Below are positions 3,828-37,887 of a stretch of DNA of 40,494 bases, piece by piece. The DNA is from a virus. The translations under genes were made by a program, and so were the position numbers. The stretch lies in IMG/VR virus record IMGVR_UViG_3300045988_104813; one strand, written 5' to 3'. How positions within the stretch are numbered: the first letter of the stretch is position 1; each line of letters opens with the position of its first letter. The notes under the pieces are model-generated. The model searched no databases. It worked only from the letters and a program-made list of their open reading frames with translations, and had not been told where the DNA came from.

Positions 3828-5693
3828 ATGGGTGCTATGGAGAATGAAAACAGAATAACGATACCCGATTTCAGTAAGGACGATTTTTTAATATCATCAA
3901 AACCGTTTCAATGGATAATAGACCAAGCTGACGGCAACGAGTTCATCAAAGGTCAGCTTGTGGCGCAAATGGCGGACAAAGCGAAAGAACTTGATGTATC
4001 AAACTTTCGGACGCAATTCAAAAACTACGTCAGAGCGCAAAAGGGTCAAAGCATTGTTTACGGCAACGTAATGGAGTTCAGTGGCACTGCAATAATGTGG
4101 GATACAGGCGAATGGATAGCAACTGATGACGGAGTGTATAGGTTTAAAGGACAGTTCAGCGAAAAAGTGACGGCGTGTCCACACCCGATATTTATGATAA
4201 CAAGATATTCAAATGTAGATACTGATGTTGAAAGTGTGCAACTTGTTTACGGCAGACCGGGACGAAATTACAAAACTAAAATCGTCCCACGTTCTGACCT
4301 TGCAAGTGCGAATAAAATCGTAAAATTAGCTGAATACGGTGTCGGTGTAACATCGGAAAACGCAAAGGCACTTGTACAGTTTTTAAGTGATTTTGAAAGT
4401 ATAAATTACGACAAAATAATCGAAAAGAAATCGTGCGATCATATGGGTTGGGTAGGCAGAGGATTTAAAGAATTTGCACCGTATATATCAGATTTGGAGT
4501 TTGAGGGACAGGACAGTTTCAGACAGTTATTTAATTCGGTAAGAGAGGTCGGCAGTTATGAAAAATGGCTTAAAACAATCAGAGATTACCGCAAAAACGG
4601 TAATATAGTTGTTCGCATGGTTATGGCGGCGAGTTTTGCGAGTGTACTGTTAAAACCGCTTGGAGCATTGCCGTTCTTCGTTCACCTATGGGGCGATACA
4701 GAAACGGGTAAATCGGTTGCGCTACTTGCGGCAGTGTCTGTATGGGCTGAGCCGGTTATCGGTAAATATGCCTATACATTCAATTCTACTGATGTAGGTA
4801 ATGAATTATATGCGGCGTGTTTAAATTCACTGCCGTTATGTATGGACGAATTGCAGATACTGAATAAACGTTCGGATTTTGATGATATAATATATCGTCT
4901 GTGCGAGGGTACAGGACGTTTACGCGGTAAAAAAGATGGTGGTATACAAAATATTAAGACGTGGCGAAATTGTATTATAACCACAGGCGAACGCCCGATA
5001 ACGTCAATGTCTTCCGGTGGCGGTGCGGTCAATCGTGTTATTGAAATAGAATGTAACGGCGGTAAGTTCTTCAAAAATCCGAGAGAATTTTGCAGAACGA
5101 TACAGTCAAGCTATGGTCACGCAGGCAAAGTATTTGTTGAGAATTTGACCGAAAATCTTGCAGAGGCAAGAGAATTACACGAAAAATACATAAAGCTGTT
5201 AGAGGACAATACGGACGCCACAGACAAACAAATTGCGTCAGCGGCGGCATTATTAACCGCTGATGAACTGTCTGAACGTTGGATATTTAATGACGGTATA
5301 AGAATAGGCATAGATGATATTAAGCCATATTTACAGACAAAGGATATGCTGAACGTCAACAGACGTGCCTATGACTATTTGCGTGAAGAAGTTATTTCTA
5401 ACTATAACAATTTTAAAAACAATGATAACGAGTGTTGGGGAATTGCTAAAGAAGGTTATATATATATTTTGCGAAACAAATTCAATGCAATATTGCAAAG
5501 CGGAAATTTCAATCCACAATCGACGCTTTCGTGGATGGCGAGAAACGGTAAGCTTGCAAAAACAGACGGTCGCAATCTTTCTGTTAAAGTGCAGATAAAC
5601 GGTACAAGAATACGTTGTATTTGCTTGCACGAAGATGATGGAGAGTTTACAGAAATGGATATTGATGATGAAGATTTGCCATTTGATATTTAA
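3828..5693 (+). CDS. Large replication protein: P-loop NTPase/helicase-like (Walker A GDTETGKS; DUF927/VirE/D5-like class) with an acidic C-terminal tail (…DIDDEDLPFDI)
   Basis: Track ORF, 621 aa; Walker A read directly; followed immediately by an iteron/AT-rich region. Confidence 0.55.
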   Translation: MGAMENENRITIPDFSKDDFLISSKPFQWIIDQADGNEFIKGQLVAQMADKAKELDVSNFRTQFKNYVRAQKGQSIVYGNVMEFSGTAIMWDTGEWIATDDGVYRFKGQFSEKVTACPHPIFMITRYSNVDTDVESVQLVYGRPGRNYKTKIVPRSDLASANKIVKLAEYGVGVTSENAKALVQFLSDFESINYDKIIEKKSCDHMGWVGRGFKEFAPYISDLEFEGQDSFRQLFNSVREVGSYEKWLKTIRDYRKNGNIVVRMVMAASFASVLLKPLGALPFFVHLWGDTETGKSVALLAAVSVWAEPVIGKYAYTFNSTDVGNELYAACLNSLPLCMDELQILNKRSDFDDIIYRLCEGTGRLRGKKDGGIQNIKTWRNCIITTGERPITSMSSGGGAVNRVIEIECNGGKFFKNPREFCRTIQSSYGHAGKVFVENLTENLAEARELHEKYIKLLEDNTDATDKQIASAAALLTADELSERWIFNDGIRIGIDDIKPYLQTKDMLNVNRRAYDYLREEVISNYNNFKNNDNECWGIAKEGYIYILRNKFNAILQSGNFNPQSTLSWMARNGKLAKTDGRNLSVKVQINGTRIRCICLHEDDGEFTEMDIDDEDLPFDI

Positions 5694-5922
5694 AATAACC
5701 GCCCTAACTGCCCTACAAAACCGACGTAAAACAATATGTGTATATTATAGAATATTTTTTTGAATTATTTATAATTAATAATTTTTATAAAAATAAAAAA
5801 GTATAAAAATGTGTAGGGCGGTAGGGCATTGGATAAAAAAATGTGTAATAATGCGGTCTAAAATATGCCCGACATTAAATTTTTGAAATTAGGGCAATAG
5901 GGCATATATAAGGAGTTAAACA
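5694..5922. promoter_or_regulatory. Candidate replication origin: three paired GCCCTA/TAGGGC iterons flanking a roughly 75-bp AT-rich stretch
   Basis: Iteron pairs at about 5701-5715 (+), 5814-5827 (-), 5890-5903 (-); AT-rich 5733-5810; directly downstream of the helicase-like gene. Confidence 0.5.
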
Positions 5923-7173
5923 ATGAAATTATTTGATTATCAAGAAAAAGCACTTGCATTAACGAGTGATAAAGACAATTCGGCATTTTACTATGATATG
6001 GGTTTAGGTAAGACATTTATAGGCAGTGAACGAATGCGATTATACGGTGAACGTGTGAATGTAGTCGTGTGTCAGAAGTCTAAAATCAAGGATTGGTACG
6101 AACATTTCAAAGAACATTATACAGATTATGCGGTATTTGATTTGACGAACAAAAAAGATATGCAGGCATTTATGACATATCCGATATACAAATGTATCGG
6201 TATTATAAATTACGAACTGGCATACAGACGTGAAGAATTAAAACAATTAACGAATTTTACAATGATGTTAGATGAAAGTTCGATGATTAAGAATGAAACT
6301 GCAAAACGTACGAAGTTTATACTTTCACTGAAACCGTCACATACAATATTGTTATCCGGTACACCGACAGACGGCAAGTATGAGTTCCTGTATTCGCAAT
6401 TACGCTTGTTAGGTTGGAAGATTACCAAAACGGCATATTATAACCGATACATAAAAACGGAATTGCGAAGTTACGGCGGTCCAATGTTCAGAGTAGTTAC
6501 AGGATACAAGAATGTAAGCGAATTAAAGGCAAAACTAAAGGAATACGGAGTGGTATTTGCTAAGGCAGAAGAAGTTATTAAGTTACCTGAAAAGAAGTTT
6601 ATCAAGGAATATTCGACTGTTTCATCAGACTATAAAAAGTTTATGAAAGACCGAGTAATCAAGATAGACGATAAGGAATTGACAGGCGACAGTACATTGT
6701 CAAAAAGACTGTATGCAAGAATGTTATGCAGTGCATATAGCAAAGACAAAATATCGCGATTAATTGATTTAGTTAATTCTACATCTGACAGGGTTATTAT
6801 ATTCTACAATTTCAATACCGAACTTGAAGCATTAAGAAAAGTGCTGTTTGATAGACCAATAAGCATAGTAAACGGACAAGTTAAGGACCTAAAGGAATAC
6901 GAAAATAACGATAATTCAGTTACATTGATACAATATCAAGCCGGAGCTATGGGATTAAATTTGCAAAAGGCGAACAGAATTATATATTTTTCTCTGCCGG
7001 AACGTTCGGAACTGTTTGAGCAATCAAAAGCGAGGATATGCCGTATCGGTCAAGAAAAACAATGCTATTATCACATAATGATGTGTCATAAGAGCGTGGA
7101 AGAAAAGATATATGAGTGTCTGTTAATGCGAAAAGATTATACAGACGAATTATTCAGAAAGGAATTTGGCTGA
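5923..7173 (+). CDS. SNF2/DEAD-like superfamily II helicase
   Basis: Motif I YDMGLGKT, motif III LLSGTP; classic phage partner of VRR-NUC. Confidence 0.8.
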   Translation: MKLFDYQEKALALTSDKDNSAFYYDMGLGKTFIGSERMRLYGERVNVVVCQKSKIKDWYEHFKEHYTDYAVFDLTNKKDMQAFMTYPIYKCIGIINYELAYRREELKQLTNFTMMLDESSMIKNETAKRTKFILSLKPSHTILLSGTPTDGKYEFLYSQLRLLGWKITKTAYYNRYIKTELRSYGGPMFRVVTGYKNVSELKAKLKEYGVVFAKAEEVIKLPEKKFIKEYSTVSSDYKKFMKDRVIKIDDKELTGDSTLSKRLYARMLCSAYSKDKISRLIDLVNSTSDRVIIFYNFNTELEALRKVLFDRPISIVNGQVKDLKEYENNDNSVTLIQYQAGAMGLNLQKANRIIYFSLPERSELFEQSKARICRIGQEKQCYYHIMMCHKSVEEKIYECLLMRKDYTDELFRKEFG

Positions 7174-10703: not shown

Positions 10704-11105
10704 TTGACGAAAGAAGAGCTAAAACAGTATCGCAGTATTGTTGCAGAATTAAACGAGGTAAATGACAGAATAAACAGTAATACAGTACACGGTACTGTCA
10801 CAGGCTCTGACGCTGAATTTCCGTACGTCAAGCACTGTATTTCTGTGTCGGGTGTTGAGCCAACACATATATCTGATATTGTACTACGTCAACGATTGGA
10901 GCGGCAAAAAAACAAGATTGAATTGTTTGTTGCCGGTATATTAGACAGTGAAACACGTCGCATATTCCGATACAGGTACATAGACGGCACCGTAATGCCG
11001 TCATGGCAGTGGATTGCATTTAAGATAGGGCATTACGATGAGAGTTATCCACGAAGAAAACATAATAAATTTTTAAAAATGCCGAATTTGCCGAAAAAAG
11101 TGTGA
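10704..11105 (+). CDS. Putative late-gene transcriptional activator (sigma-70 region-4-like, DUF1492/ArpU/RinA-class)
   Basis: C-terminal RRIFRYRYIDG…SWQWIAFKIGHYDES resembles ECF region 4; last gene before a terminator and the packaging region. Confidence 0.45.
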   Translation: MTKEELKQYRSIVAELNEVNDRINSNTVHGTVTGSDAEFPYVKHCISVSGVEPTHISDIVLRQRLERQKNKIELFVAGILDSETRRIFRYRYIDGTVMPSWQWIAFKIGHYDESYPRRKHNKFLKMPNLPKKV

Positions 11106-11286
11106 TACAATTTATAATGCGAAAAGAATGAGCAAACAAAAAATAATGCAAAACATATATACAGTGCAATATTTTGTGTTCTATATCTTACCGCTCGTTA
11201 TTTTCGTAAAAAAGGTAGTGTATCGTCGTGAGATGATGGGTGAATATCTCGTGTGATTGGTGGGAGTGGAGATATTAAGTCAATTA

Positions 11287-11333
11287 AACAGATTGTATAT
11301 GTCAATCATATGCAGTCTGTTTTTTATTTTTGA
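11287..11333 (+). terminator. Rho-independent terminator (16-bp imperfect stem AAACAGATTGTATATG/CATATGCAGTCTGTTT plus TTTTTTATTTTT)
   Basis: Read directly; ends the early/middle operon. Confidence 0.55.
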
Positions 11334-11350
11334 ATGAAAGGGACATAACT

Positions 11351-12916
11351 ATGGAATTATTGCAATTAGTTGAAAAATTTAAAGATATTATCAATGTAAG
11401 CAAGATTGAAGATGCTGTAGATGAATTAAAAACAAAATTGTTAAATGATAATGAGTGTAAGAAGTTATGCGAAGATTGGATTTCAATATGTCCCGATTTA
11501 ACAAAAGATTATATGCAGATGATATTTCAATATTATTTTGCCGACCGTAAAGAGAAAATGCAAGACTACACACCAAAAAGTCTTGCAACGGCAGTCGCTG
11601 AATTATCAAAAAATGAAGATGAAAAGATATGTTTAGATTTATGTGCCGGTAGCGGAGCATTGACGATTCAGAAATGGAATAAGAATAATAATTTAAAATT
11701 TATCTGTAAGGAATACGATAGGCGAGTTATTCCGTTTTTATTATTTAATTTGGCAATTAGAAATATTGATGCCGAGGTCGTGCATTGTGATGTATTGGCA
11801 GATGAAACGTTTAAAGTGTACAGGACAAAAAAAGGCGATAGATTTGCAACAGTTGCAGAAATCGGTAAAAGTGAATTTAAGGCTGACGTCTGTATATCGA
11901 ATCCGCCGTACAATATGAAATGGGAACAACCTGTATTTGCACAATTACAGAATAGATTCTCACAGTGTGAAATTCCGCCGGAAAGCAATGCAAATTATGC
12001 GTTTGTGTTGACGGCATTAAATGAAATCAAGAGCAAGGCAAGTTTTATACTGCCGAATGGCATTTTAAGCACTGATAATAAAAAAGAGAAACAAATAAAA
12101 AAATATTTAGTCGAAATGAATTTTATCGAAAGTATAATTTTATGCCCCGATAAAATGTTTGAAGTAACGTCAATACCAACGTGTATTATTACATTCAACA
12201 AAAACAAACAACATTCGACAGTGGAAATGATTGACCTACGACAGAAATATGAAATTGAACAGCGAATGCAAAACGGGCAGTACGGAGGGGCAAGCCATAC
12301 AAACAGAACATACGCCAAAGAAGTTAAGATTATAACAGAAAGTCAAGTTCAAGACGTATTACTGCAAATTGAACAGCGTGGAAATGTAGCCGGTTATTGT
12401 AAATCTGTAAGCATTGAAGAAATAAAAAACAATGATTATGTATTGATACCGAGTCGATATATAGATTTTGATACGGTGGAAGAAGTGCATAGACCGTATG
12501 TCGATATAGTGAATGATTTGAACCGTGTTATAGCTGAAAAAAACACTTGCAAATTGACAATAAACGAAACTATCGCTAAATCAATAGGTTTTGATGTGGA
12601 AACGCTAAAGCAAGACAATAGTACATCAGATGGATTATCAGAATTAACAGAGAAACTATGTGGCAAAAAGATTGTGAAAAGTGACTATTTCAGAACGACA
12701 AAAAAGAAAAATGAAATAGTATTTTCAAACAACAGCAAAGAAAATATTTCGAGCATTTTTATGCTGATATTCAATATGTGGAAACAACACATATACTACC
12801 TAAACATCGAGGAAAACAGATATTTAGTCGAACTAAGAGATGCACTATTACCGGAACTGATGAGCGGTAAGATTGATTTAAGTGATATACAAACAGAAAG
12901 CGAGGGTGTGCAATGA
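11351..12916 (+). CDS. N6-adenine DNA methyltransferase (HsdM-like, NPPY motif) fused to an HsdS-like target-recognition domain; no endonuclease partner in the window
   Basis: Motif I DLCAGSGAL, motif IV ISNPPYNMKW; C-terminal YVLIPSRYI and LRDALLPELMSGKIDLS resemble HsdS conserved regions; start moved to ATG 11351 (AAAGGGA RBS). Confidence 0.75.
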   Translation: MELLQLVEKFKDIINVSKIEDAVDELKTKLLNDNECKKLCEDWISICPDLTKDYMQMIFQYYFADRKEKMQDYTPKSLATAVAELSKNEDEKICLDLCAGSGALTIQKWNKNNNLKFICKEYDRRVIPFLLFNLAIRNIDAEVVHCDVLADETFKVYRTKKGDRFATVAEIGKSEFKADVCISNPPYNMKWEQPVFAQLQNRFSQCEIPPESNANYAFVLTALNEIKSKASFILPNGILSTDNKKEKQIKKYLVEMNFIESIILCPDKMFEVTSIPTCIITFNKNKQHSTVEMIDLRQKYEIEQRMQNGQYGGASHTNRTYAKEVKIITESQVQDVLLQIEQRGNVAGYCKSVSIEEIKNNDYVLIPSRYIDFDTVEEVHRPYVDIVNDLNRVIAEKNTCKLTINETIAKSIGFDVETLKQDNSTSDGLSELTEKLCGKKIVKSDYFRTTKKKNEIVFSNNSKENISSIFMLIFNMWKQHIYYLNIEENRYLVELRDALLPELMSGKIDLSDIQTESEGVQ

Positions 12917-21178: not shown

Positions 21179-21796
21179 ATGGCAAATACAGCAAAAAGAA
21201 AACCACTACCTACAATAGGTGTGGACAAGTATACTTTCTTTAAAGTGAATGAGGACAGCGTTAGCGGAACGGAATACGGAGAAGCGTATAATTTGAAAGG
21301 AACGGTTGAAATTGCACCGACTGACAGCGGTGGCAGTGATGTTTTTGATGCGGACAACGGTGCGTATGAGGCGTCAAGCTATATCGAAAAATTGGGACAC
21401 GATATTACAAATGCCGATATTCCGCCGGAGGTTGACGCAATGTGGCGTGGATTGACACGCAAAAACGGTGTGGTTGAAGTCGGAAACGATGTTAAAACAG
21501 TATATTTCGGTGTGGCATGGAGAATTTTGAAGTCCGACGGCTCGTACCGTTATGTAAGATACTACAAGGGTTCATACAGCTTTGCGTCAAACGTCGGAGG
21601 TAAAACAAAAGCGTCAAGCGGTGCGCCTGAAAAGCAAACCGCAAAGGCTACATATACAGCCGTACAGCGTGATTTTGACAACAACTATTACGCATACTTT
21701 GACGAATGCGATTTGCCGGAAGGTGTCACAAAGACAGAACTTGAGGAAAATTGGTTTAAGGATATGAACTACTATCCTGTAAAGAAAGGACTGTAA
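21179..21796 (+). CDS. Major tail protein (TP901-1/phi13-like)
   Basis: Size and position directly before the chaperone/tape-measure genes. Confidence 0.7.
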   Translation: MANTAKRKPLPTIGVDKYTFFKVNEDSVSGTEYGEAYNLKGTVEIAPTDSGGSDVFDADNGAYEASSYIEKLGHDITNADIPPEVDAMWRGLTRKNGVVEVGNDVKTVYFGVAWRILKSDGSYRYVRYYKGSYSFASNVGGKTKASSGAPEKQTAKATYTAVQRDFDNNYYAYFDECDLPEGVTKTELEENWFKDMNYYPVKKGL

Positions 21797-21808
21797 AATA
21801 AACGTAAT

Positions 21809-21837
21809 TTGACATTATATGAGGTATAGTGTAGAAT
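21809..21837 (+). promoter_or_regulatory. Strong sigma-A-like promoter: TTGACA, 17 nt, TAGAAT
   Basis: Hexamers and spacing read directly. Confidence 0.45.
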
Positions 21838-21903
21838 AAAAATAGGCTGAAAAGCCTTGATATATGGAGAGCGGTGGCGGCTCTGTTTCGGAAAGGAAAT
21901 ATT

Positions 21904-21966
21904 ATGAGTGAAACCACAATACAACTTGTATTGATTTTGCTTATTGTATGGATATTAAAGAAATAA
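21904..21966 (+). CDS. Tiny 20-aa hydrophobic peptide ORF (MSETTIQLVLILLIVWILKK) with GGAAAGGAAA RBS; may equally be part of a non-coding leader/sRNA
   Basis: Read directly; follows the promoter at 21809. Confidence 0.2.
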   Translation: MSETTIQLVLILLIVWILKK

Positions 21967-22098
21967 CCGCCCTAACGCAATAGGACGGTTATTTGGGTAG
22001 AAAAATATTTTCTACACTAAATATAAACTAATGTATTAGAAACGGCTGTTTACCGTTCCTCTTATATCTAAATTATAACACAATAAAAAATGTATGTC

Positions 22099-22122
22099 AA
22101 GCACGCATATAGCGTGCTTTTT
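22099..22122 (+). terminator. Rho-independent terminator AAGCACGC-atatag-CGTGCTTTTTG
   Basis: Read directly. Confidence 0.65.
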
Positions 22123-22148
22123 GTATGCAATGAATTAGGAGGAATATT

Positions 22149-22418
22149 ATGCAACACACATTAACATTTAAACACGATAATAAAAAATACGTTTCAAAGC
22201 CGTTCGACTTTGAGGCAATGTGTATTATTAATGACGCACATAACGATGAAAATAAAAACGGACCGTTAAATATCTGCCGAGAGGCGGTGGACTATATGTT
22301 CGAGGGAACGGACGCAACGCAGGATATTATTGATGCCATTGATGTAGGCACACACTCAAGACTATGTATGGAATTATGGAAATTCTATATAGACGCGTTG
22401 ACAACAAAAAACGAGTAA
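22149..22418 (+). CDS. Tail assembly chaperone (gpG-like)
   Basis: Position between major tail protein and tape measure; overlaps the next ORF in the -1 frame. Confidence 0.7.
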   Translation: MQHTLTFKHDNKKYVSKPFDFEAMCIINDAHNDENKNGPLNICREAVDYMFEGTDATQDIIDAIDVGTHSRLCMELWKFYIDALTTKNE

Positions 22419-22615
22419 AGGGCGGTAATTCCTCAAAAAGCCAACCACTGCGTACTTTGTATGCAGATTGGTTTAGGCAAAGAGGGTTATTGCCGAATGT
22501 AATATCAAAGCAAAATCCGTTTGTTTTGTTTAAAATGATAGACGATTTGGAAGATGATACGGAAGAGGTCTATACAGGAAACGACCCGTATTTAAAAATG
22601 TTTTACGGAATGTAG
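22364..22615 (+). CDS. C-terminal extension of the tail assembly chaperone (gpGT-like), expressed by -1 frameshift from ORF 22149
   Basis: Overlapping -1 frame ORF; conserved G/GT arrangement upstream of the tape measure gene. Confidence 0.6.
   Translation: MYGIMEILYRRVDNKKRVKGGNSSKSQPLRTLYADWFRQRGLLPNVISKQNPFVLFKMIDDLEDDTEEVYTGNDPYLKMFYGM
22406..22412 (+). promoter_or_regulatory. Programmed -1 ribosomal frameshift slippery heptamer A_AAA_AAC
   Basis: In ORF1 frame …aca aaa aac gag taa; the -1 frame continues as KKRVKGGNSS… to 22615. Confidence 0.6.
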
Positions 22616-22629
22616 TGAGGTGATTTGTA

Positions 22630-25600
22630 ATGGCTGACGCGGCGGAATTAGTAGTAAGAATAAGAGGTGATGCGTCGGATTTAGAGGCAACAATAAGCGG
22701 TGTATCGCAACAACTCGAAGAATTGGAACGAACACAAAGCAATACAAATGGTGTGAAAGGTGTAAGAGAAAGCACAAGTGCATATCAAGGTCTTGCAAGT
22801 CAGCTTAAAGATACCGGAAAAGGTATAAAAGAAGTCGGCGAAAGTATTGACACGATAACAAAACCGATACAATACGCATCAACGGCTCTTGCCGCAGGCG
22901 GTGTCGCAAGTGCGAAGTTTGCAATAGATTTTGAGGATAGTTTTGCCGGAGTTAAAAAGACGGTTGACGCTACACCGGAACAGTTATCCAAAATAAAGCA
23001 AGGCATTATTGATTTGTCAACAACAGGTATTGACGGCAGAGGCGCGATACCACAAACAACGACTGAACTAAACGAACTTGCGGCGGCGGGCGGTCAGTTG
23101 GGTATATCACAAGAAAACATTATTGACTTTACGGAAGTAATGGCACAAATGGGTTCAGCAACAAACCTTGTCGGCGAAGAGGGTGCCGCAACACTGGCAC
23201 GTTTTCAGAATGTTATGGGTGTCGGTCAAAACGAAATCCGTAATATCGGCAGTGCAATCGTTGATTTGGGTAACCACAGTGCGACAACAGAATCGGAAAT
23301 CGCGGAAATGGCATTGCGTATGGGTAAATACGGTTCATCTGTACGAATGTCGGCGGCGGACGTGTTGGGTTATTCTGCCGCACTATCATCATTAGGCATT
23401 GAGGCACAAATGGGCGGTAGTGCGATAGGTCGTACGTGGCTATCCATAGAAACAGCCGTTGCAAGCGGCGGAGAGGGCTTGACGAAATTCGCAAAGTATA
23501 GCGGTAAAAGTGCGGAAGAGTTTAAAAAGCAGTGGAATACTGACAGCTCCGGTGCATTTAACGGACTGTTAAAAGGCTTGCAGTCTGCCGAGAATCTAAC
23601 TGTTGCGTTAGATGATTTAGGCATAAACAATACACAGGATATACAGGCTATGATGGCATTAGTCAACGGTTATGATTTAGTAACCGAGAGTGTCAATCGT
23701 TCAAACACCGCATACCAAGAAAATACGGCATTGCAAGAAGAATTTAATGCAAAGAATGAAACGACCGCATCAAAATTGGCGAACACAAAAAACAATATTA
23801 TTGAGGCGGCAAGAAGTATCGGCGAAACAATGTTGCCGTCAATAAAAGACGCAAGCACCACAGTAGCTGATTTTGCAAAAGGATTGTCGCAAATGGACGA
23901 CGAGCAAAAACGTGCTGTTGTTAATACGGGTGCGACAGTTATTGCGATAGGTGCTATTTCAAAAGTCAGTGCCGGAGCAATCAAAGGTGTTGGCGGAATT
24001 GTTGAGGCAGTCGGCAACATCAAAAAGGCATTTTCAACAGGCGGAGCATTGGCGAAGTTTGCACCGACATTGACAAGTATCGGTGCGGCGGCAGGTCCTG
24101 CCGCATTAGCTGTTGCCGGTATTGCTACGGCGGCGATAGCCGGAAAGGTTGCATATGACAAATGGTATCAATCACAATACAGATGGAGTGAGGGGCTGTC
24201 AGAGGGCAACGAGAAAGTCAAGGAAAGCCTTGAAAAATACAAATTCTTGAATGATATTCAAGGACAAATAAAGTCGCTGAAAATGGTTATTGAAAGCCCC
24301 GAAAGCAGTCAAGAACAAGTTGACAATGCAAAAAGCAAGTTAGAAGAAATAAAGGAAATGCTATCACAGGAATACAATCTTGTTATCAATTCCGATAATT
24401 CTAATTTAGACGACGCAGTTGAACAAGTTACAAAACTGTCTAAGAATGAATTGCAATCTAACATAAATAATCAACGTGCCGAATTATCTGAATTAGTAAA
24501 TAATAATGCTAATTATATACAAACACGACGCGAGGCACAAGAAAATTATAACAAAGAATTGGAATTGCAGACCAAATATTCAGAGGCACAGTCTAAAGTC
24601 AGTGACATTACTGCAAAAATAGCAAATAACGAAATCACTGCGGCTGAGGGGTATGCGAAAGCTAAAGAGATATATAAAAATACAATAGGTAGTGACTATG
24701 AAAACGCAATAACAGATGAATCCGATAAGAATGCCGAAAGCGTGCTTGCTTCAATCACCGGCAGTTATAAGGTTGCGACAGGAATACTTGAAGATTATAA
24801 AAAGCAACTGGATGATTTGGACGGTTCACATCAAGAACTACATGATACAGCAGAAGAACTGTCTAACATGGAGCTTGAATTGTTAAAAATGTCAGTGGCA
24901 AATAAGGATAATGAGAGTGTGGAAAAATCATTGTCTGATATGAAAGAATTTATTTCAGCGGGCAAACTGGATATGAACAGTTATGCTCAAGCCGCGGCAT
25001 TGGCAATGAATGGAGTTGATAATTTAGAGTCTGCGTGGGAAAAAGCGGCAAATGGTGACGGAACAGAATTGAATAATATAATTAACGATTATGTTCATTC
25101 AATGCAAAAGTTTGGAGCATATTCAGGTGATATTGCAACAAATGCCGCTTTACTGCAAAATGGATTTAAGACTGTAAAAGAAGCTGCCGAAAATGGTAAA
25201 CTTGATGTTATTACCGAACAGGCAAACGAATTAGCACACAGTATGGGACTGATTCCCGAAAATAAGCGGATAGTGATAGATGCCGACGGGAACATTTCGG
25301 TAGTAAAGGAACTTCAACAGGCTGTAGATGATGTAAATACAAAAGGTGACGTAAAACTGCAAGTCGATGCAGAGGGCGATGTTTCTGTATTGGACACAGC
25401 TGATGAAAAATTAAAAGAACTTGTCAAAAATGACGAAGTTCAGATTAAATTTAATGTCGATACAGGCGGTTTTGATATTAACGATTTGAATGGTAATAAG
25501 TTGGGTGAAATCACTGCAACGGGTAAAGTTATATGGACTAACGACAGCACAGAACCCGACAACTATACGGCACCACCCAAAGAGGGCAATGTTACATTTA

Positions 25601-27489
25601 AGAAGAATAGTGCAGAACCTGACGGCTATCAACCCGAAGACAAATTTGCGACAGTCCATTATACTGTTTCTGTTGAGGGTTCGTCTATAGAGGGACTAAG
25701 CAATAAAAGTGTTCCTGCGGCACGTTTTGGCAGTACGGGAACGTTCGTCAAAAAGAAAGTCGCAAAAGGTACACAAAACTTCGAGGGCGGTTTGGCAATG
25801 GTTAATGATGAAAAGGGTATATCTGACCCGCGAGAATTAATCGTTGACAAAGGACGTGCATTTATACCGCAGGGCAAGGACGTGTTGTTGCCATTGTCAA
25901 ATGGTGCAAAGGTGTACACAGCGTCGCAAACCAAGGCGATAATGTCGGGTATGGGTATACCGCATTACGCAACAGGAAAAGACAATTCGGACGCGTTTAC
26001 ATCAGCCAAGGACGATTGGACGCATTACACTAAAACGCACGCAGTAACGACTGCACAAGATCTTGAAAAGTGGTTAGAATTTCAAGAGAAATTCAAATCG
26101 AACGACAAGGATATTGCCGATATAGAGGAACAAATTTTCAGTCTGACACAGAAACGCACGCAGGAGTTAAACAACCTGTCAAAGTCGTACATTGAAGAAC
26201 GTGCGGCACTGAATGACTGGGACGACAACGGCGACAATCCTGTTGACGCATTTGCCCGTATTCGTGACCGCAATATGGCGGAAGTCGAGGCAGGACGTAT
26301 GACGTGGGAGGACTATACGACAGAAATGTCAAGTATAGGTTCAACGTTATACGAGAATATGACCGAATACAGTCGCGATTGGTTGGAACACCAAGAAAAA
26401 TACAACGGTATGAGTGCCGCCGATTATATCGCAGGTATCGGCAGAATACAGACGTACACCGAACAAATGTACGCACAGGGTATAATCAGCCACAAAGAAT
26501 ATGTAGAGGCTAAAAACAAGCTGAATGAAGAATATTTAGATAAACGCAAAGAACAGATTGAACAAGAATACAACATATCTAAGGACTACATCAGCGAGCA
26601 TACATATTTCAACGACTGGCAAGATAACGGCGATAATCCGCTTGATGCCTATAACCGAGTTATGGACAGGCACCGTGAGGAATTGGCGAACGGCGAGTTG
26701 ACACAGGACGAGTTCGACAAGTATCAAAGTGAATTAGGTTCGGATATGTATTCGGAGCGTGTGGAGCAGTCAAAGAACTGGTTGGAAGAACAACGCAAGT
26801 ATTACGGTATGACTGATGAAGAATATATCGCCGGTTTAAAACGTATTCAGCAGTATACACAGGAATACTATGATTTGGGGTTAATCAGCCGCAAAGAATA
26901 CAACGAAAATATGACTGAACTAAATCACGATATGTTCGACCAAGCGGGCGAATCGTTTGACGATATGCTACAGCAACAGCAGGACTACATCAATAAACTG
27001 CGTGATGAATTTTCTGCACAGGAACAGGCATTACAGGACAGTTGGACGGTAGAGGACCGCAAGGCTGATATGTCCGAAACACAGGCACAGTTGGATATTT
27101 ACGCAAATGCAGTAACAGACCGAGGACAACAAAAATACAAGGAACTGCAAGAGCAGATGAAACAACTGCAACGTGACGAAGAACTGTATCAATTACAGGT
27201 CAAGAACAATGCCACGATTGAGAAGTTGGAGGCGGAGTATGACGCGTTGGAAAACAGCAAGGCTGATTTCATCAAGTCCATTGCAACCAACATTGACAGT
27301 ATAGACGTGACGGGTATTGTGGCGGATATAACACAGGAAGTCAGCGGCGGCAATGATAAGATAACCAAGACTTTGGGTGAGATTATAGAGGCTATTAAGG
27401 GCATTAAGATTGAACAGCAGAACTATAACAACAACAGTAAAATCACAATCAATACGACTGACAGCGCCGTTTTGGGTAGCTATGTATAA
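22630..27489 (+). CDS. Tail tape measure protein (TP901-type core), 1619 aa
   Basis: Size; TP901-family core region (residues about 100-350); Ala/Gly-rich TM-like segment; position. Confidence 0.9.
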   Translation: MADAAELVVRIRGDASDLEATISGVSQQLEELERTQSNTNGVKGVRESTSAYQGLASQLKDTGKGIKEVGESIDTITKPIQYASTALAAGGVASAKFAIDFEDSFAGVKKTVDATPEQLSKIKQGIIDLSTTGIDGRGAIPQTTTELNELAAAGGQLGISQENIIDFTEVMAQMGSATNLVGEEGAATLARFQNVMGVGQNEIRNIGSAIVDLGNHSATTESEIAEMALRMGKYGSSVRMSAADVLGYSAALSSLGIEAQMGGSAIGRTWLSIETAVASGGEGLTKFAKYSGKSAEEFKKQWNTDSSGAFNGLLKGLQSAENLTVALDDLGINNTQDIQAMMALVNGYDLVTESVNRSNTAYQENTALQEEFNAKNETTASKLANTKNNIIEAARSIGETMLPSIKDASTTVADFAKGLSQMDDEQKRAVVNTGATVIAIGAISKVSAGAIKGVGGIVEAVGNIKKAFSTGGALAKFAPTLTSIGAAAGPAALAVAGIATAAIAGKVAYDKWYQSQYRWSEGLSEGNEKVKESLEKYKFLNDIQGQIKSLKMVIESPESSQEQVDNAKSKLEEIKEMLSQEYNLVINSDNSNLDDAVEQVTKLSKNELQSNINNQRAELSELVNNNANYIQTRREAQENYNKELELQTKYSEAQSKVSDITAKIANNEITAAEGYAKAKEIYKNTIGSDYENAITDESDKNAESVLASITGSYKVATGILEDYKKQLDDLDGSHQELHDTAEELSNMELELLKMSVANKDNESVEKSLSDMKEFISAGKLDMNSYAQAAALAMNGVDNLESAWEKAANGDGTELNNIINDYVHSMQKFGAYSGDIATNAALLQNGFKTVKEAAENGKLDVITEQANELAHSMGLIPENKRIVIDADGNISVVKELQQAVDDVNTKGDVKLQVDAEGDVSVLDTADEKLKELVKNDEVQIKFNVDTGGFDINDLNGNKLGEITATGKVIWTNDSTEPDNYTAPPKEGNVTFKKNSAEPDGYQPEDKFATVHYTVSVEGSSIEGLSNKSVPAARFGSTGTFVKKKVAKGTQNFEGGLAMVNDEKGISDPRELIVDKGRAFIPQGKDVLLPLSNGAKVYTASQTKAIMSGMGIPHYATGKDNSDAFTSAKDDWTHYTKTHAVTTAQDLEKWLEFQEKFKSNDKDIADIEEQIFSLTQKRTQELNNLSKSYIEERAALNDWDDNGDNPVDAFARIRDRNMAEVEAGRMTWEDYTTEMSSIGSTLYENMTEYSRDWLEHQEKYNGMSAADYIAGIGRIQTYTEQMYAQGIISHKEYVEAKNKLNEEYLDKRKEQIEQEYNISKDYISEHTYFNDWQDNGDNPLDAYNRVMDRHREELANGELTQDEFDKYQSELGSDMYSERVEQSKNWLEEQRKYYGMTDEEYIAGLKRIQQYTQEYYDLGLISRKEYNENMTELNHDMFDQAGESFDDMLQQQQDYINKLRDEFSAQEQALQDSWTVEDRKADMSETQAQLDIYANAVTDRGQQKYKELQEQMKQLQRDEELYQLQVKNNATIEKLEAEYDALENSKADFIKSIATNIDSIDVTGIVADITQEVSGGNDKITKTLGEIIEAIKGIKIEQQNYNNNSKITINTTDSAVLGSYV
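26208..26935 (+). repeat. Two tandem ~131-aa coding repeats inside the tape measure gene (NDWDDNGDNPVDAF…/NDWQDNGDNPLDAY…)
   Basis: Protein-level repeat read from the translation; period about 393 nt. Confidence 0.6.
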
Positions 27490-36720: not shown

Positions 36721-37748
36721 TTGTTTTCGTTTATGCGGTTTATTGCGTCAATACCTGCATAGTACAAATTAGTTGCATATGTATGACGGAATATATGTGG
36801 TGTAACGTCTTTTGCGATTAATCGTATAGCCGTGTCCGAACGTGAAAACTCGTCACCGCCTGCGGCAACATTCATCTTATCTAATATATTATACCAAAAA
36901 CGACGAAACGATGATTTTGTCATAGGTTCACCGCTTTTCATTGTAAATAAATATATATTTTTTGCGTGTGCAATATATTCTTGCAATTCTGACAATAGTT
37001 TTGCCGGAAGAGGAATGGAGCGGTTGCCTGCGTTTGTTTTAGGCGAATTTTTTAGGTGACTTTCACCGTCCTTTATCACCAAATTTTTGTTTATGATTAA
37101 TCTGCGATTTTTAAAATCAATATCTTTGACGGTCAAAGCCAGTGCTTCACCGCGTCTTACACCAGTGTAATATAGTAGATCTACAAATACACGTTCACGC
37201 TGTGTCAGTTTTGCTTTTTCAAAAATTGCTTTCTCTTCGTTCGATAATGACCGCTTTTCTTTCTTTTGTGATTGCGGTAATGAAACTTTCAACGAAACGT
37301 CCTTGTAGATGTATTCGTTTATTATCGCTTGTTGGATAATCTGTTTTATCGTCAGTCTAACGATTTCAGCAGTTCGGTAATGACCGACACTGATAATGTC
37401 ATTTAACATTTCTTGAATATGATGTGACTTCAACGCACTTAAACGAATACCGCCTATTTCGGGTATAATGTGCGAATTTAGGGCGTTTAAATACATTGCA
37501 TAGGTGTTATACTCTTTCGCTGATTTGTACAGCTTTAGCCACTTTATTCCCCATTGCTCTACGGTCATACCCTCATCATTGATAATGATGCCTTTATTTT
37601 GCAGGCTCTTGAACTCGGCGACCTTTTTGTCCAGTTCCATAATTGTACGACCGTACAGTGTTTTACGTTTCGGTTTGCCGTCGTCTGTATATCCAACAAT
37701 CGTACTTGTTGCATAACGTCCGTCGGGACGTTTTTTATATTTAGCCAT
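36717..37748 (-). CDS. int: Tyrosine recombinase / phage integrase
   Basis: C-terminal HIFRHTYATNLYYAG (R…H..R…Y catalytic pattern); start moved to MAKYKK (AGGAG RBS). Confidence 0.9.
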   Translation of the reverse strand: MAKYKKRPDGRYATSTIVGYTDDGKPKRKTLYGRTIMELDKKVAEFKSLQNKGIIINDEGMTVEQWGIKWLKLYKSAKEYNTYAMYLNALNSHIIPEIGGIRLSALKSHHIQEMLNDIISVGHYRTAEIVRLTIKQIIQQAIINEYIYKDVSLKVSLPQSQKKEKRSLSNEEKAIFEKAKLTQRERVFVDLLYYTGVRRGEALALTVKDIDFKNRRLIINKNLVIKDGESHLKNSPKTNAGNRSIPLPAKLLSELQEYIAHAKNIYLFTMKSGEPMTKSSFRRFWYNILDKMNVAAGGDEFSRSDTAIRLIAKDVTPHIFRHTYATNLYYAGIDAINRINENK

Positions 37749-37847
37749 AAATAACACTCCTTTTTCGTTTTTTTGTATTGAAAATAGAGTGCATTTGTGT
37801 TACAATATCATTGGTATGGGATATTGTGTATAAATGCACTTTATTCT

Positions 37848-37887
37848 TTTTCCTCTGTCTGCTCCAACAGGCAGAGGATTTTTTATT
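37848..37887 (+). other. Hairpin CCTCTGTCTG-ctccaa-CAGGCAGAGG plus T-tract in the AT-rich int/repressor intergenic region; attP-core or terminator candidate
   Basis: Read directly. Confidence 0.3.

Follow-up and report, generated by a model that had tools for sequence, protein, structure and literature searches.

A 40,494-nt stretch of phage DNA (IMG/VR record IMGVR_UViG_3300045988_104813; hereafter the window, meaning the whole stretch analysed) carries a cassette at positions 21793..22125 that is probably a type I toxin-antitoxin system of a new family and has the form of a phage moron. Human gut metagenomes are the source of the phage. Judged from its sequence, the cassette looks like two convergent genes, one for the mRNA of a small hydrophobic peptide (putative toxin) and one for a cis-antisense small RNA (sRNA; putative antitoxin), complementary to the 3′ untranslated region (UTR) of the mRNA. 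Morons are genes with their own promoter and terminator, lying between late genes of lambdoid and HK97-like phages. The cassette likewise has its own promoter and terminator, and sits between genes which are adjacent in related phages. An initial annotation had described this segment as one self-contained transcription unit. The self-contained accessory unit, with its own promoter, micro-peptide gene and terminator, was recovered here, and the single unit gave way to two convergent genes.

The cassette is a unit of homology in common with chromosomal copies (blastn, window positions 21500-22400 against 69 metagenome loci). The F-type chromosomal copies aligned with the window over exactly 21793-22125, with ~87% identity, in good agreement with the limits proposed initially (21797-22125). 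Because the F-type homology runs to 22125, the terminator at 22099-22122 is part of the unit. The gap between the major tail protein gene and the tail chaperone pair measures 352 nt, of which the insert makes up ~330 bases.

The 69 further loci were found by a metagenome scan anchored on the end of the open reading frame (ORF) and the start of the hairpin, and none of them (0/69) adjoined a tail gene. The contexts seen were beside an aldo/keto reductase plus argS/typA, after a 2182-aa surface protein, and in an element bearing integrase and helix-turn-helix (HTH) genes; the three chromosomal contexts examined had no phage genes alongside. The exact TypA and ArgS proteins flanking a chromosomal copy are named Hominilimicola (Oscillospiraceae, Clostridia) by their sources, and the chaperone of the window is also named from a Hominilimicola genome. 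At least eight alleles (A-H) were recognized, as paralogous copies in phage, chromosomal and integrative-element contexts of this genus. Since copies also sit in the host chromosome, the cassette appears to be of an accessory addiction or defence type and not a tail component; the initial annotation had also set it apart from the standard tail module, and the same unit in non-phage contexts bears this out. A metagenome scan with anchors excluding alleles A and B gave no matches. A reference-genome pattern, AAAGCCTTGATATRTRG, was unspecific, all 120 matches listed being due to chance.

The stronger of the two convergent promoters is on the minus strand and belongs to the antisense RNA gene (22072..22100, read from 22100 to 22072). 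It has the form TTGACA-17-TGnTATAAT, with 12/12 consensus positions and an extended −10 box, and is the best-scoring site in the whole window. Only four sites in the 40.5-kb window reach at least 11/12 consensus positions, two of them being the convergent promoters of the cassette. The minus-strand promoter is conserved in all alleles as TTGAC(A/T)-17-TGnTATAAT, with differing spacers. From a predicted start at ~22065-22067, it would give an antisense sRNA of ~110 nt with three hairpins (21955..22068, minus strand), the putative antitoxin.

At its other end, this RNA has an intrinsic terminator (21955..21994, minus strand), consisting of a hairpin (21961-21994) with 14-bp arms, 93% complementary, and a U-tract (21960-21955). 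The minus-strand tail, CTTTAATATC, is invariant in nine alleles as GGCGGTTATTT(C/T)TTT. The plus-strand tail after the hairpin is variable and poor (TTATTTGGG, TTAGTCG, TTGAATG). In allele B the stem of the hairpin is kept by compensatory changes (helix 8), and TAGGGC is lost. The palindrome had been noticed before and read as iteron-like; it is indeed present, with its 14-bp arms, and we interpret it as the terminator of the minus-strand RNA, because conservation of the U-tract is confined to the minus strand. The iteron reading is not needed, since the hairpin is explained as a terminator whose stem is kept by compensation in allele B. Both the 12/12 promoter with its extended −10 box and the minus-only conservation of the U-tract had been overlooked. 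In all alleles, the predicted minus-strand RNA of ~110 nt would be bounded by the 12/12 promoter with its TG extension and by the conserved terminator.

Next to the terminator, a GTAGAA-loop-TTCTAC hairpin (21997..22015; inverted repeat I9, also recovered in the folds) is conserved in alleles A-H and absent from the orphan antisense copies described below. This hairpin holds the right copy of a 10-mer, TAGTGTAGAA.

A covariance model of the minus-strand RNA, built from nine alleles (R1), matched the antisense sRNA site with 122.8 bits, its sole strong match in the window. As a search for a second antisense copy in the window, R1 gave only weak, terminator-like matches (37777-37886 and elsewhere). 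In the Hominilimicola loci it gave 87 matches, including the divergent cassettes (G, H) and orphan antisense genes.

On the plus strand, the putative toxin mRNA has a promoter of the form TTGACA-17-TAGAAT (21809..21837; 11/12), with a predicted start at ~21844. Wherever the left end of an allele was available, a sigma-70-type promoter is found at this position, its sequence being different in C, E and G; the 5′ part of allele D is truncated, which put its left half outside this comparison. The predicted mRNA begins with a 5′-terminal hairpin, GGCTgaaaAGCC (GGCU-GAAA-AGCC; 21846..21857, plus strand). A hairpin of other sequence is kept at the same place in E (AGCC..GGCU), C (CAATTAA..TTAATTG), G (AGATTAAA..TTTAATCT) and H (GGGTTT..AAACCC). 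The ribosome-binding site, GAAAGGA (21891..21897, plus strand), forms invariant columns in alignment A1 and lies 5-10 nt from the start codon in all alleles. In each allele of complete sequence, both promoters, the 5′ hairpin and GAAAGGA are kept.

The 20-codon ORF MSETTIQLVLILLIVWILKK (21904..21966, plus strand) is hydrophobic and ends in a Lys-Lys tail. Promoter, 5′ hairpin, ribosome-binding site and ORF had all been recognized in the initial annotation, together with the plus-strand rho-independent terminator, and each was found again at these positions, the ORF being moreover conserved across alleles. At 20 aa and with its charged tail, MSETTIQLVLILLIVWILKK falls within the range of small hydrophobic toxin ORFs (<60 aa, charged tail; PMC7699646). 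No second hydrophobic, KK-tailed micro-ORF was found in the window. Peptides of 20 codons each are encoded by alleles A, F and C (MSETTIQLVLILLIVWILKK), E (MSETTVQLLLILLIVWVIKK), G (MSESTLVLIILFLLVYVIKK) and H (MSEFTLIIIIVFLLVIEIKK), and share the form MSE.T...(I/V)KK despite up to 28/60 nt differences. In A, C, E and F the last eight codons had been fixed by the search pattern, leaving only the first twelve unbiased; G and H were recovered via the antisense RNA, which makes their ORF comparison unbiased. Between close alleles, all substitutions in the ORF are synonymous. Allele B encodes a different hydrophobic peptide of 24 aa with a KK end, and has a 7-bp hairpin upstream that sequesters the ribosome-binding site. 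A 30-aa ORF with a GTG start (21874) was rejected, its upstream in-frame part being unconserved and GAAAGGA followed by ATG being conserved.

A further hairpin is predicted to pair the start-codon region with codons 12-16 (21899..21950, plus strand; minimum-free-energy folds). It corresponds to the consensus helices 5-7 of alignment A2, which are 87-100% paired. The intrinsic terminator that would end the long peptide mRNA (~280 nt) is at 22099..22122 on the plus strand and overlaps the −35 box of the antisense promoter. It is present in alleles A, B, D and F, and absent in C, E and G.

The two ends of the peptide mRNA are predicted to pair with each other in a long-distance fold-back helix. 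Its 5′ arm (21859..21889, plus strand; inverted repeat I4) lies just after the 5′ hairpin. Its 3′ arm (22039..22068, plus strand) is 180 nt from the 5′ leader, immediately upstream of the start site of the antisense promoter, and the antisense RNA would begin with its complement. In the minimum-free-energy fold of the 282-nt plus-strand RNA, the arms close as a ~25-bp helix in alleles A, F and B. The duplexes of cognate arms reached −30 to −40 kcal/mol in 7/7 alleles tested, values attained by none of 500 shuffles; that of the window has −31 kcal/mol (z = −5.6). For B, G and H the arm pairing is allele-specific.

RNAalifold predicted the same fold-back helix from 14 natural alleles. In the resulting structure 94.3% of the cells were paired, and 10 pairs were changed on both sides, compared to 3.0 ± 1.3 in shuffles (0/500 reaching 10) and 0-3 in slid controls, a control in which the structure is favoured, being derived from the same sequences. 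Among the copies of allele C, a single helix position occurs as G-C, G.U, A-U and A.C.

Both arms are on the same strand, and therefore their pairing needs a plus-strand transcript running past the shared hairpin. It is mainly because of this requirement for read-through that we propose a long mRNA of ~280 nt (~21844 to ~22122). The 3′ UTR and the last four codons of such an mRNA would consequently be fully complementary to the antisense RNA. Complementarity between antisense RNA and mRNA beyond the shared hairpin likewise needs a plus-strand transcript past 21994, an extension supported by the conserved 5′-3′ helix. A model with a bidirectional terminator and a short mRNA was disfavoured, given the poor and variable plus-strand tail and a 5′ leader that pairs beyond the hairpin. 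A layout of the par/Fst type was rejected as well, no direct repeats linking 21844-21910 with 21995-22065. Instead, inverted repeats are present, which make the two RNAs resemble each other in their 5′ regions where a par-type layout would have them complementary.

From these elements we propose the following mode of action. The peptide mRNA would read through the weak plus orientation of the shared hairpin as far as 22099-22122. The 5′ hairpin would protect it, and the fold-back helix and the start-codon hairpin would keep it stable and poorly translated. The antisense RNA would be abundant and presumably short-lived, pairing with the 3′ UTR from complementary hairpin loops. It would then displace the imperfect 5′ arm, giving a long duplex to be cut by RNase III, as in the 3′-overlapping systems of B. 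subtilis prophages. Upon loss of the cassette or a stop in transcription, the antisense RNA would decay first. The surviving stable mRNA would be processed and translated, and the membrane peptide would arrest or kill the cell. The phage might benefit through retention of the prophage or through action against competitors.

Several points weigh against a toxin-antitoxin system that works in this way. Both start sites, and the read-through giving the long mRNA, are predictions, as are the transcripts, the toxicity, the RNA half-lives and the benefit for the phage. Only one genus, Hominilimicola, yielded members of the family. No known toxin or antitoxin family matched the cassette in Rfam, Pfam, NCBIfam or PHROGs. 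With Rfam 15, the whole window gave no match at the gathering score; the best sub-threshold match, to Enterococcus RefA9 (31.7 vs 49 bits), covered essentially the terminator hairpin only, and this match and one to rli38 were discarded as driven by the terminator. The peptides of alleles A and B had no family in Pfam or NCBIfam (E up to 10) or PHROGs (E up to 0.01), and that of allele G, scanned against PHROGs only, had none there; sensitivity is low at 20-24 residues. The hydrophobic core of the peptide, ~14 residues, is short for a membrane helix, and GAAAGGA in the window is a weak ribosome-binding site. Alleles C and G have no plus-strand terminator, and their plus transcript would enter the downstream gene; allele E also has no canonical one. 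Finally, the ribosome-binding site is masked by a strong local hairpin in B and by a 4-bp hairpin in A, so the control of translation is not agreed among alleles.

A non-toxic small membrane protein under cis-antisense control, acting for example in superinfection exclusion or lysis timing, with no addiction or killing, is an unlikely reading, to which we still give some weight. The architecture of promoter, ORF and antisense gene would fit it equally well, and from its position in a late operon the ORF would be carried on late transcripts. However, near-identical peptides occur at chromosomal sites by housekeeping genes, with several copies per element and some antisense genes as orphans, a distribution characteristic of toxin-antitoxin families, and not one expected of phage-specific functions. 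The fold-back helix and the sequestered start codon would also lock the mRNA elaborately, in the manner of mRNAs for lethal peptides (PMC6733600).

The distribution among related phages is evidence for an accessory cassette, and bears also on a different reading, which we consider improbable: that the cassette is an RNA-level element of the late operon, setting the ratio of the major tail protein to the downstream tail proteins by termination, processing or RNase III, with the ORF being incidental. Of the related phages we compared 85 loci. Of these, ~35 have the same 352-nt gap, with 99-100% identity, and five have a variant of 370-372 nt (allele B); ~50 others have no cassette. A 53-nt gap with a terminator hairpin alone was found in ~45 loci; the shortest gaps were 10 nt in five loci and 13 nt in one, and L085 had ~66 nt. 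The major tail genes can be 96-98% identical between carriers and cassette-free phages, and the divergence starts exactly at the stop codon. Some cassette-free relatives have chaperones 75% identical to those of the window. These relatives having gaps of only 10-53 nt, the insertion into the late operon, as suggested initially, is supported, and the existence of cassette-free relatives shows that the segment is not simply a 3′ UTR conserved in all of them. No other segment of the neighbourhood is as well conserved among carriers as the cassette (99.4-100% identity, vs 86-88% for the major tail gene). In a pattern scan of viral contigs, all matches came from this phage group except for a GC-rich one due to chance (L240), and the region had no match among 50,697 GenBank phage records (megablast, blastn).

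A role of this kind in the late operon would fit with the plain terminator hairpin that cassette-free relatives have at the same place (L017), and with the similar terminator ending the cassette (22099-22122). On the other hand, length, start, stop and hydrophobicity of the ORF are kept at up to 45% nucleotide difference, with only synonymous changes between close alleles, and the ribosome-binding site is invariant. The cassette is also found outside any phage operon, and relatives with the 10-nt gap do without any such element.

The terminator of the cassette-free relatives, GGCACGCCGAAAGGCGTGCTTTTTTCGTAT, follows the major tail gene (L017 3619-3672), and its 3′ half resembles that of the cassette terminator, GCGTGCTTTTTGTAT. 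This similarity possibly marks the site of the recombination that brought the cassette in. In L022 (3619-4760; IMG/VR contig 3300045988_079995), an F-type cassette comes after the major tail gene, and the DNA of the next ~500 nt is unrelated, including a stretch resembling a tRNA 3′ end; then comes the 3′ end of the integrase gene of this phage, 99% identical to window positions 36731-37020. The ~14.5 kb of tail and lysis genes are missing from it. L022 has arisen by deletion, by recombination or as a chimera of the assembly, with the cassette at the joint.

Least probable is a single transcription unit for a small RNA or micro-peptide that is a miniature mobile element delimited by TAGTGTAGAA, with an iteron-like, protein-binding palindrome shared with the origin, close to what the initial annotation had suggested: the unit is truly an insertion and the 10-mer repeat is real and rare, but the right copy is internal, the exact repeat is absent from F and B, no target-site duplication was apparent in the junction sequences inspected, the palindrome stem of allele B changes by compensation and loses TAGGGC, chromosomal copies keep the hairpin (in the three contexts examined, without adjoining phage genes), and the minus-strand promoter and U-tract account for the palindrome as a terminator. 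The inverted copies of TAGTGTAGAA do exist, exactly two in the window (21827-21836, plus strand, and 22010-22019, minus strand; 0.06 expected). They do not bracket the unit, which reaches 22125, ~100 nt beyond the right copy, and their exact pairing is absent in F and B. Since the repeat neither brackets the unit nor is conserved, the miniature-transposon part of that proposal is unsupported. The terminal inverted repeats and target-site duplication of a miniature inverted-repeat transposable element were not found at the junctions inspected.

The 16-mer AAATAACCGCCCTAAC (21961-21976), also noted initially, does have an exact second copy at 5693-5708, beside a cluster of six TAGGGC repeats. 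This copy lies right after the stop codon of a gene for a 621-aa replication-type protein with DUF927 and Cch-HTH (3828-5693) and before a SNF2-type helicase gene (5923-7173), and the similarity extends upstream with a 2-nt gap (GATATT.AAA..AATAACCGCCCTAAC). Positions 5693-5910 hold 6 of the 10 TAGGGC hexamers of the window, two on one strand and four on the other, flanking an AT-rich stretch of ~100 bp; from its sequence, this region looks like an origin or operator. Because chromosomal cassettes keep the same hairpin, the 16-mer match may go back to past recombination instead of marking a protein site in common.

With its complementarity to the 3′ arm of the lock, the antisense RNA has a 5′ end that the 5′ leader of the mRNA resembles, so that the two would compete for one site. 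Beyond this, a more specific arrangement can be imagined within a toxin-antitoxin system, which we put forward as doubtful. The leader would be an imperfect mimic of the antitoxin 5′ end, both pairing with the same 3′-UTR segment, in a three-way competition for one RNA site in which the antitoxin displaces the long-distance lock. As the peptide gene is co-oriented with the late tail operon, read-through transcripts would carry the antitoxin target and soak up antitoxin. The peptide would then act on the membrane as an in-built trigger at a late stage, or as a dead-man switch coupled to induction of the prophage. The orphan antitoxin genes found on a competing integrative element (L244, L251, L255 and others) would serve it as anti-addiction devices against the phage toxin.

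Such orphan antisense genes, with their own promoter and terminator and with neither a toxin ORF nor the middle hairpin, were found in L244 (8416-8504, minus strand), L251 (9887-9975), L265 (3260-3348), L274 (2830-2918) and L255 (1987-2097). A C-type cassette and a small gene resembling CopG/ribbon-helix-helix proteins (sub-threshold PF16777) precede them by ~250 nt, and in at least one case (L244) the element carries integrase-like and HTH genes. The orphan of L244 is 91% identical to the antisense RNA of the window over 88 aligned positions, and could cross-neutralise the phage toxin.

Four loci (L007, L248, L262, L266) combine a toxin half of the A or C type with the antitoxin half of allele E. 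The cross-over is at the shared ORF end and terminator start, and the 5′-3′ helix is weakened in these hybrids. Either natural recombination at a hot spot or misassembly across a repeated family would explain them, and they were left out of the covariation set. In L299 (minus strand, ~10836-11520) an H-type and then an F-type cassette stand in tandem, with nearly the same plus-strand promoter and with different leaders and toxins; from this pair, the family evidently expands by local duplication. In L244 (5480-5860), a one-base difference from L288 within a T-run shortens a G-type ORF to 17 codons; this is due to a sequencing error, or else the toxin copy has been inactivated.

The genes around the cassette are those of a tail module. 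The major tail protein gene (21179..21796, plus strand) was assigned by PHROG 88 (E = 2.4e-28), and its source name is phi13-family major tail protein. The tail assembly chaperone pair (22149-22418 and the overlapping 22364-22615, plus strand) was recognized by gene order; its two ORFs (89 and 83 aa; 22149-22615) had no Pfam or PHROG family match. The tape measure gene (22630-27489, plus strand) comes directly after the pair, and its 1619-aa protein has PF10145. The chaperones of relatives are 45-85% identical to those at 22149-22615, so the chaperone module is highly mosaic.

Type I toxin-antitoxin systems are nearly invisible to homology searches and gene callers. To our knowledge, they are known from few lineages, and in the Clostridia essentially only from C. 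difficile. The cassette would add a family from a common, little-studied commensal genus of the human gut, Hominilimicola, and from its prevalent prophage. With 20 aa, its toxin would be among the shortest proposed. The comparative set is unusually clear, with eight alleles and with compensatory changes backing the 5′-3′ lock. It would also follow that a two-gene, RNA-regulated module can lie unnoticed in what looks like a long intergenic gap of a phage structural operon. The coordinates given here could be used to study prophage addiction and cross-talk with the chromosomal copies, and to develop a counter-selection marker for genetically intractable gut anaerobes.

Among known systems, the C. 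difficile systems of phiCD630-1 and phiCD630-2 (CD0977.1-RCd11 and its relatives) are close in organization. Type I systems of C. difficile prophages are marked by a toxin with a hydrophobic N-terminus and a positive tail, a convergent layout and a prophage location (PMC7699646). Like the cassette, they are prophage-borne in Clostridia, have convergent genes with sigma-A-type promoters, a hydrophobic N-terminal part with a lysine tail and several paralogues, and are missed by gene callers; their proposed role, maintenance of mobile elements, is also the one proposed here (PMC7699646). Among the features listed for them, the cassette is also predicted to share a cis-antisense sRNA with the stronger promoter and a structured mRNA with protected ends (PMC7699646). 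Their toxins have 34-47 aa, compared to 20 aa here, and their function has been shown experimentally, whereas the cassette is known from sequence alone (PMC7699646). Unlike them, the cassette lies inside a tail-gene operon and has a predicted allele-specific 5′-3′ fold-back helix.

The position of the antisense gene would be that of the B. subtilis systems txpA/RatA, bsrG/SR4, bsrE/SR5 and yonT/SR6, which have antisense RNAs of ~100 nt and an overlap of ~100 bp at the 3′ ends or 3′ UTRs (PMC6562991, PMC3531473, PMC5848175). The overlap described for B. subtilis is 100-140 bp and decay goes through RNase III, SR4 additionally remodelling the ribosome-binding site of the toxin mRNA (PMC6562991, PMC3531473). 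These systems are on prophages or prophage-like elements, and decay initiated by RNase III would be expected here too, possibly along with an effect at a distance on the ribosome-binding site, as with SR4 (PMC6562991). As in yonT-yoyJ of B. subtilis, the transcript of alleles C and G would take in a second gene further downstream. The yonT toxin has 58 aa (PMC5848175), vs 20 aa here. A 5′-3′ fold-back helix is not mentioned for the B. subtilis systems in the consulted part of PMC6562991, and no Rfam match linked the cassette with the RNAs of these systems.

The lock itself has its parallels in hok/Sok of plasmid R1 and aapA/IsoA of Helicobacter pylori, which also combine a small hydrophobic toxin with a long-distance 5′-3′ lock of the mRNA (PMC6733600). 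IsoA3 pairs only with the 3′-truncated aapA3 mRNA, and 3′ trimming must first remove the lock (PMC6733600). In Gram-negative systems with 5′ complementarity, of which hok/Sok is one, the ribosome-binding site or its vicinity is where the antitoxin acts (PMC6562991). Unlike in hok and aapA, it is the 3′ arm of the lock that the antisense RNA of the cassette would pair with, in competition with the 5′ leader; the hosts belong to other phyla and there is no sequence similarity. The cassette would thus join a 3′-overlapping antitoxin and a fold-back lock, which in the cited literature are separate, the first in the Bacillus systems and the second in hok/aapA.

The par system of the Enterococcus plasmid pAD1 (Fst / RNA I-RNA II) has convergent genes, a shared terminator hairpin and a 5′ stem-loop on the toxin mRNA, and direct repeats make its two 5′ regions complementary. 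The cassette resembles par in the first three of these features. Unlike in par, its 5′ regions are alike and not complementary, and it has no Pfam match, including to the Fst family. In toxin size it is like the Ibs toxins of E. coli, which have 18-19 aa, and whose Sib RNAs overlap the whole ibs gene. Unlike the classical morons, which as generally understood encode a single protein, it is a two-gene, RNA-regulated module with chromosomal paralogues. By its architecture, the cassette would be a type I system, standing outside the described sequence families of the libraries searched.

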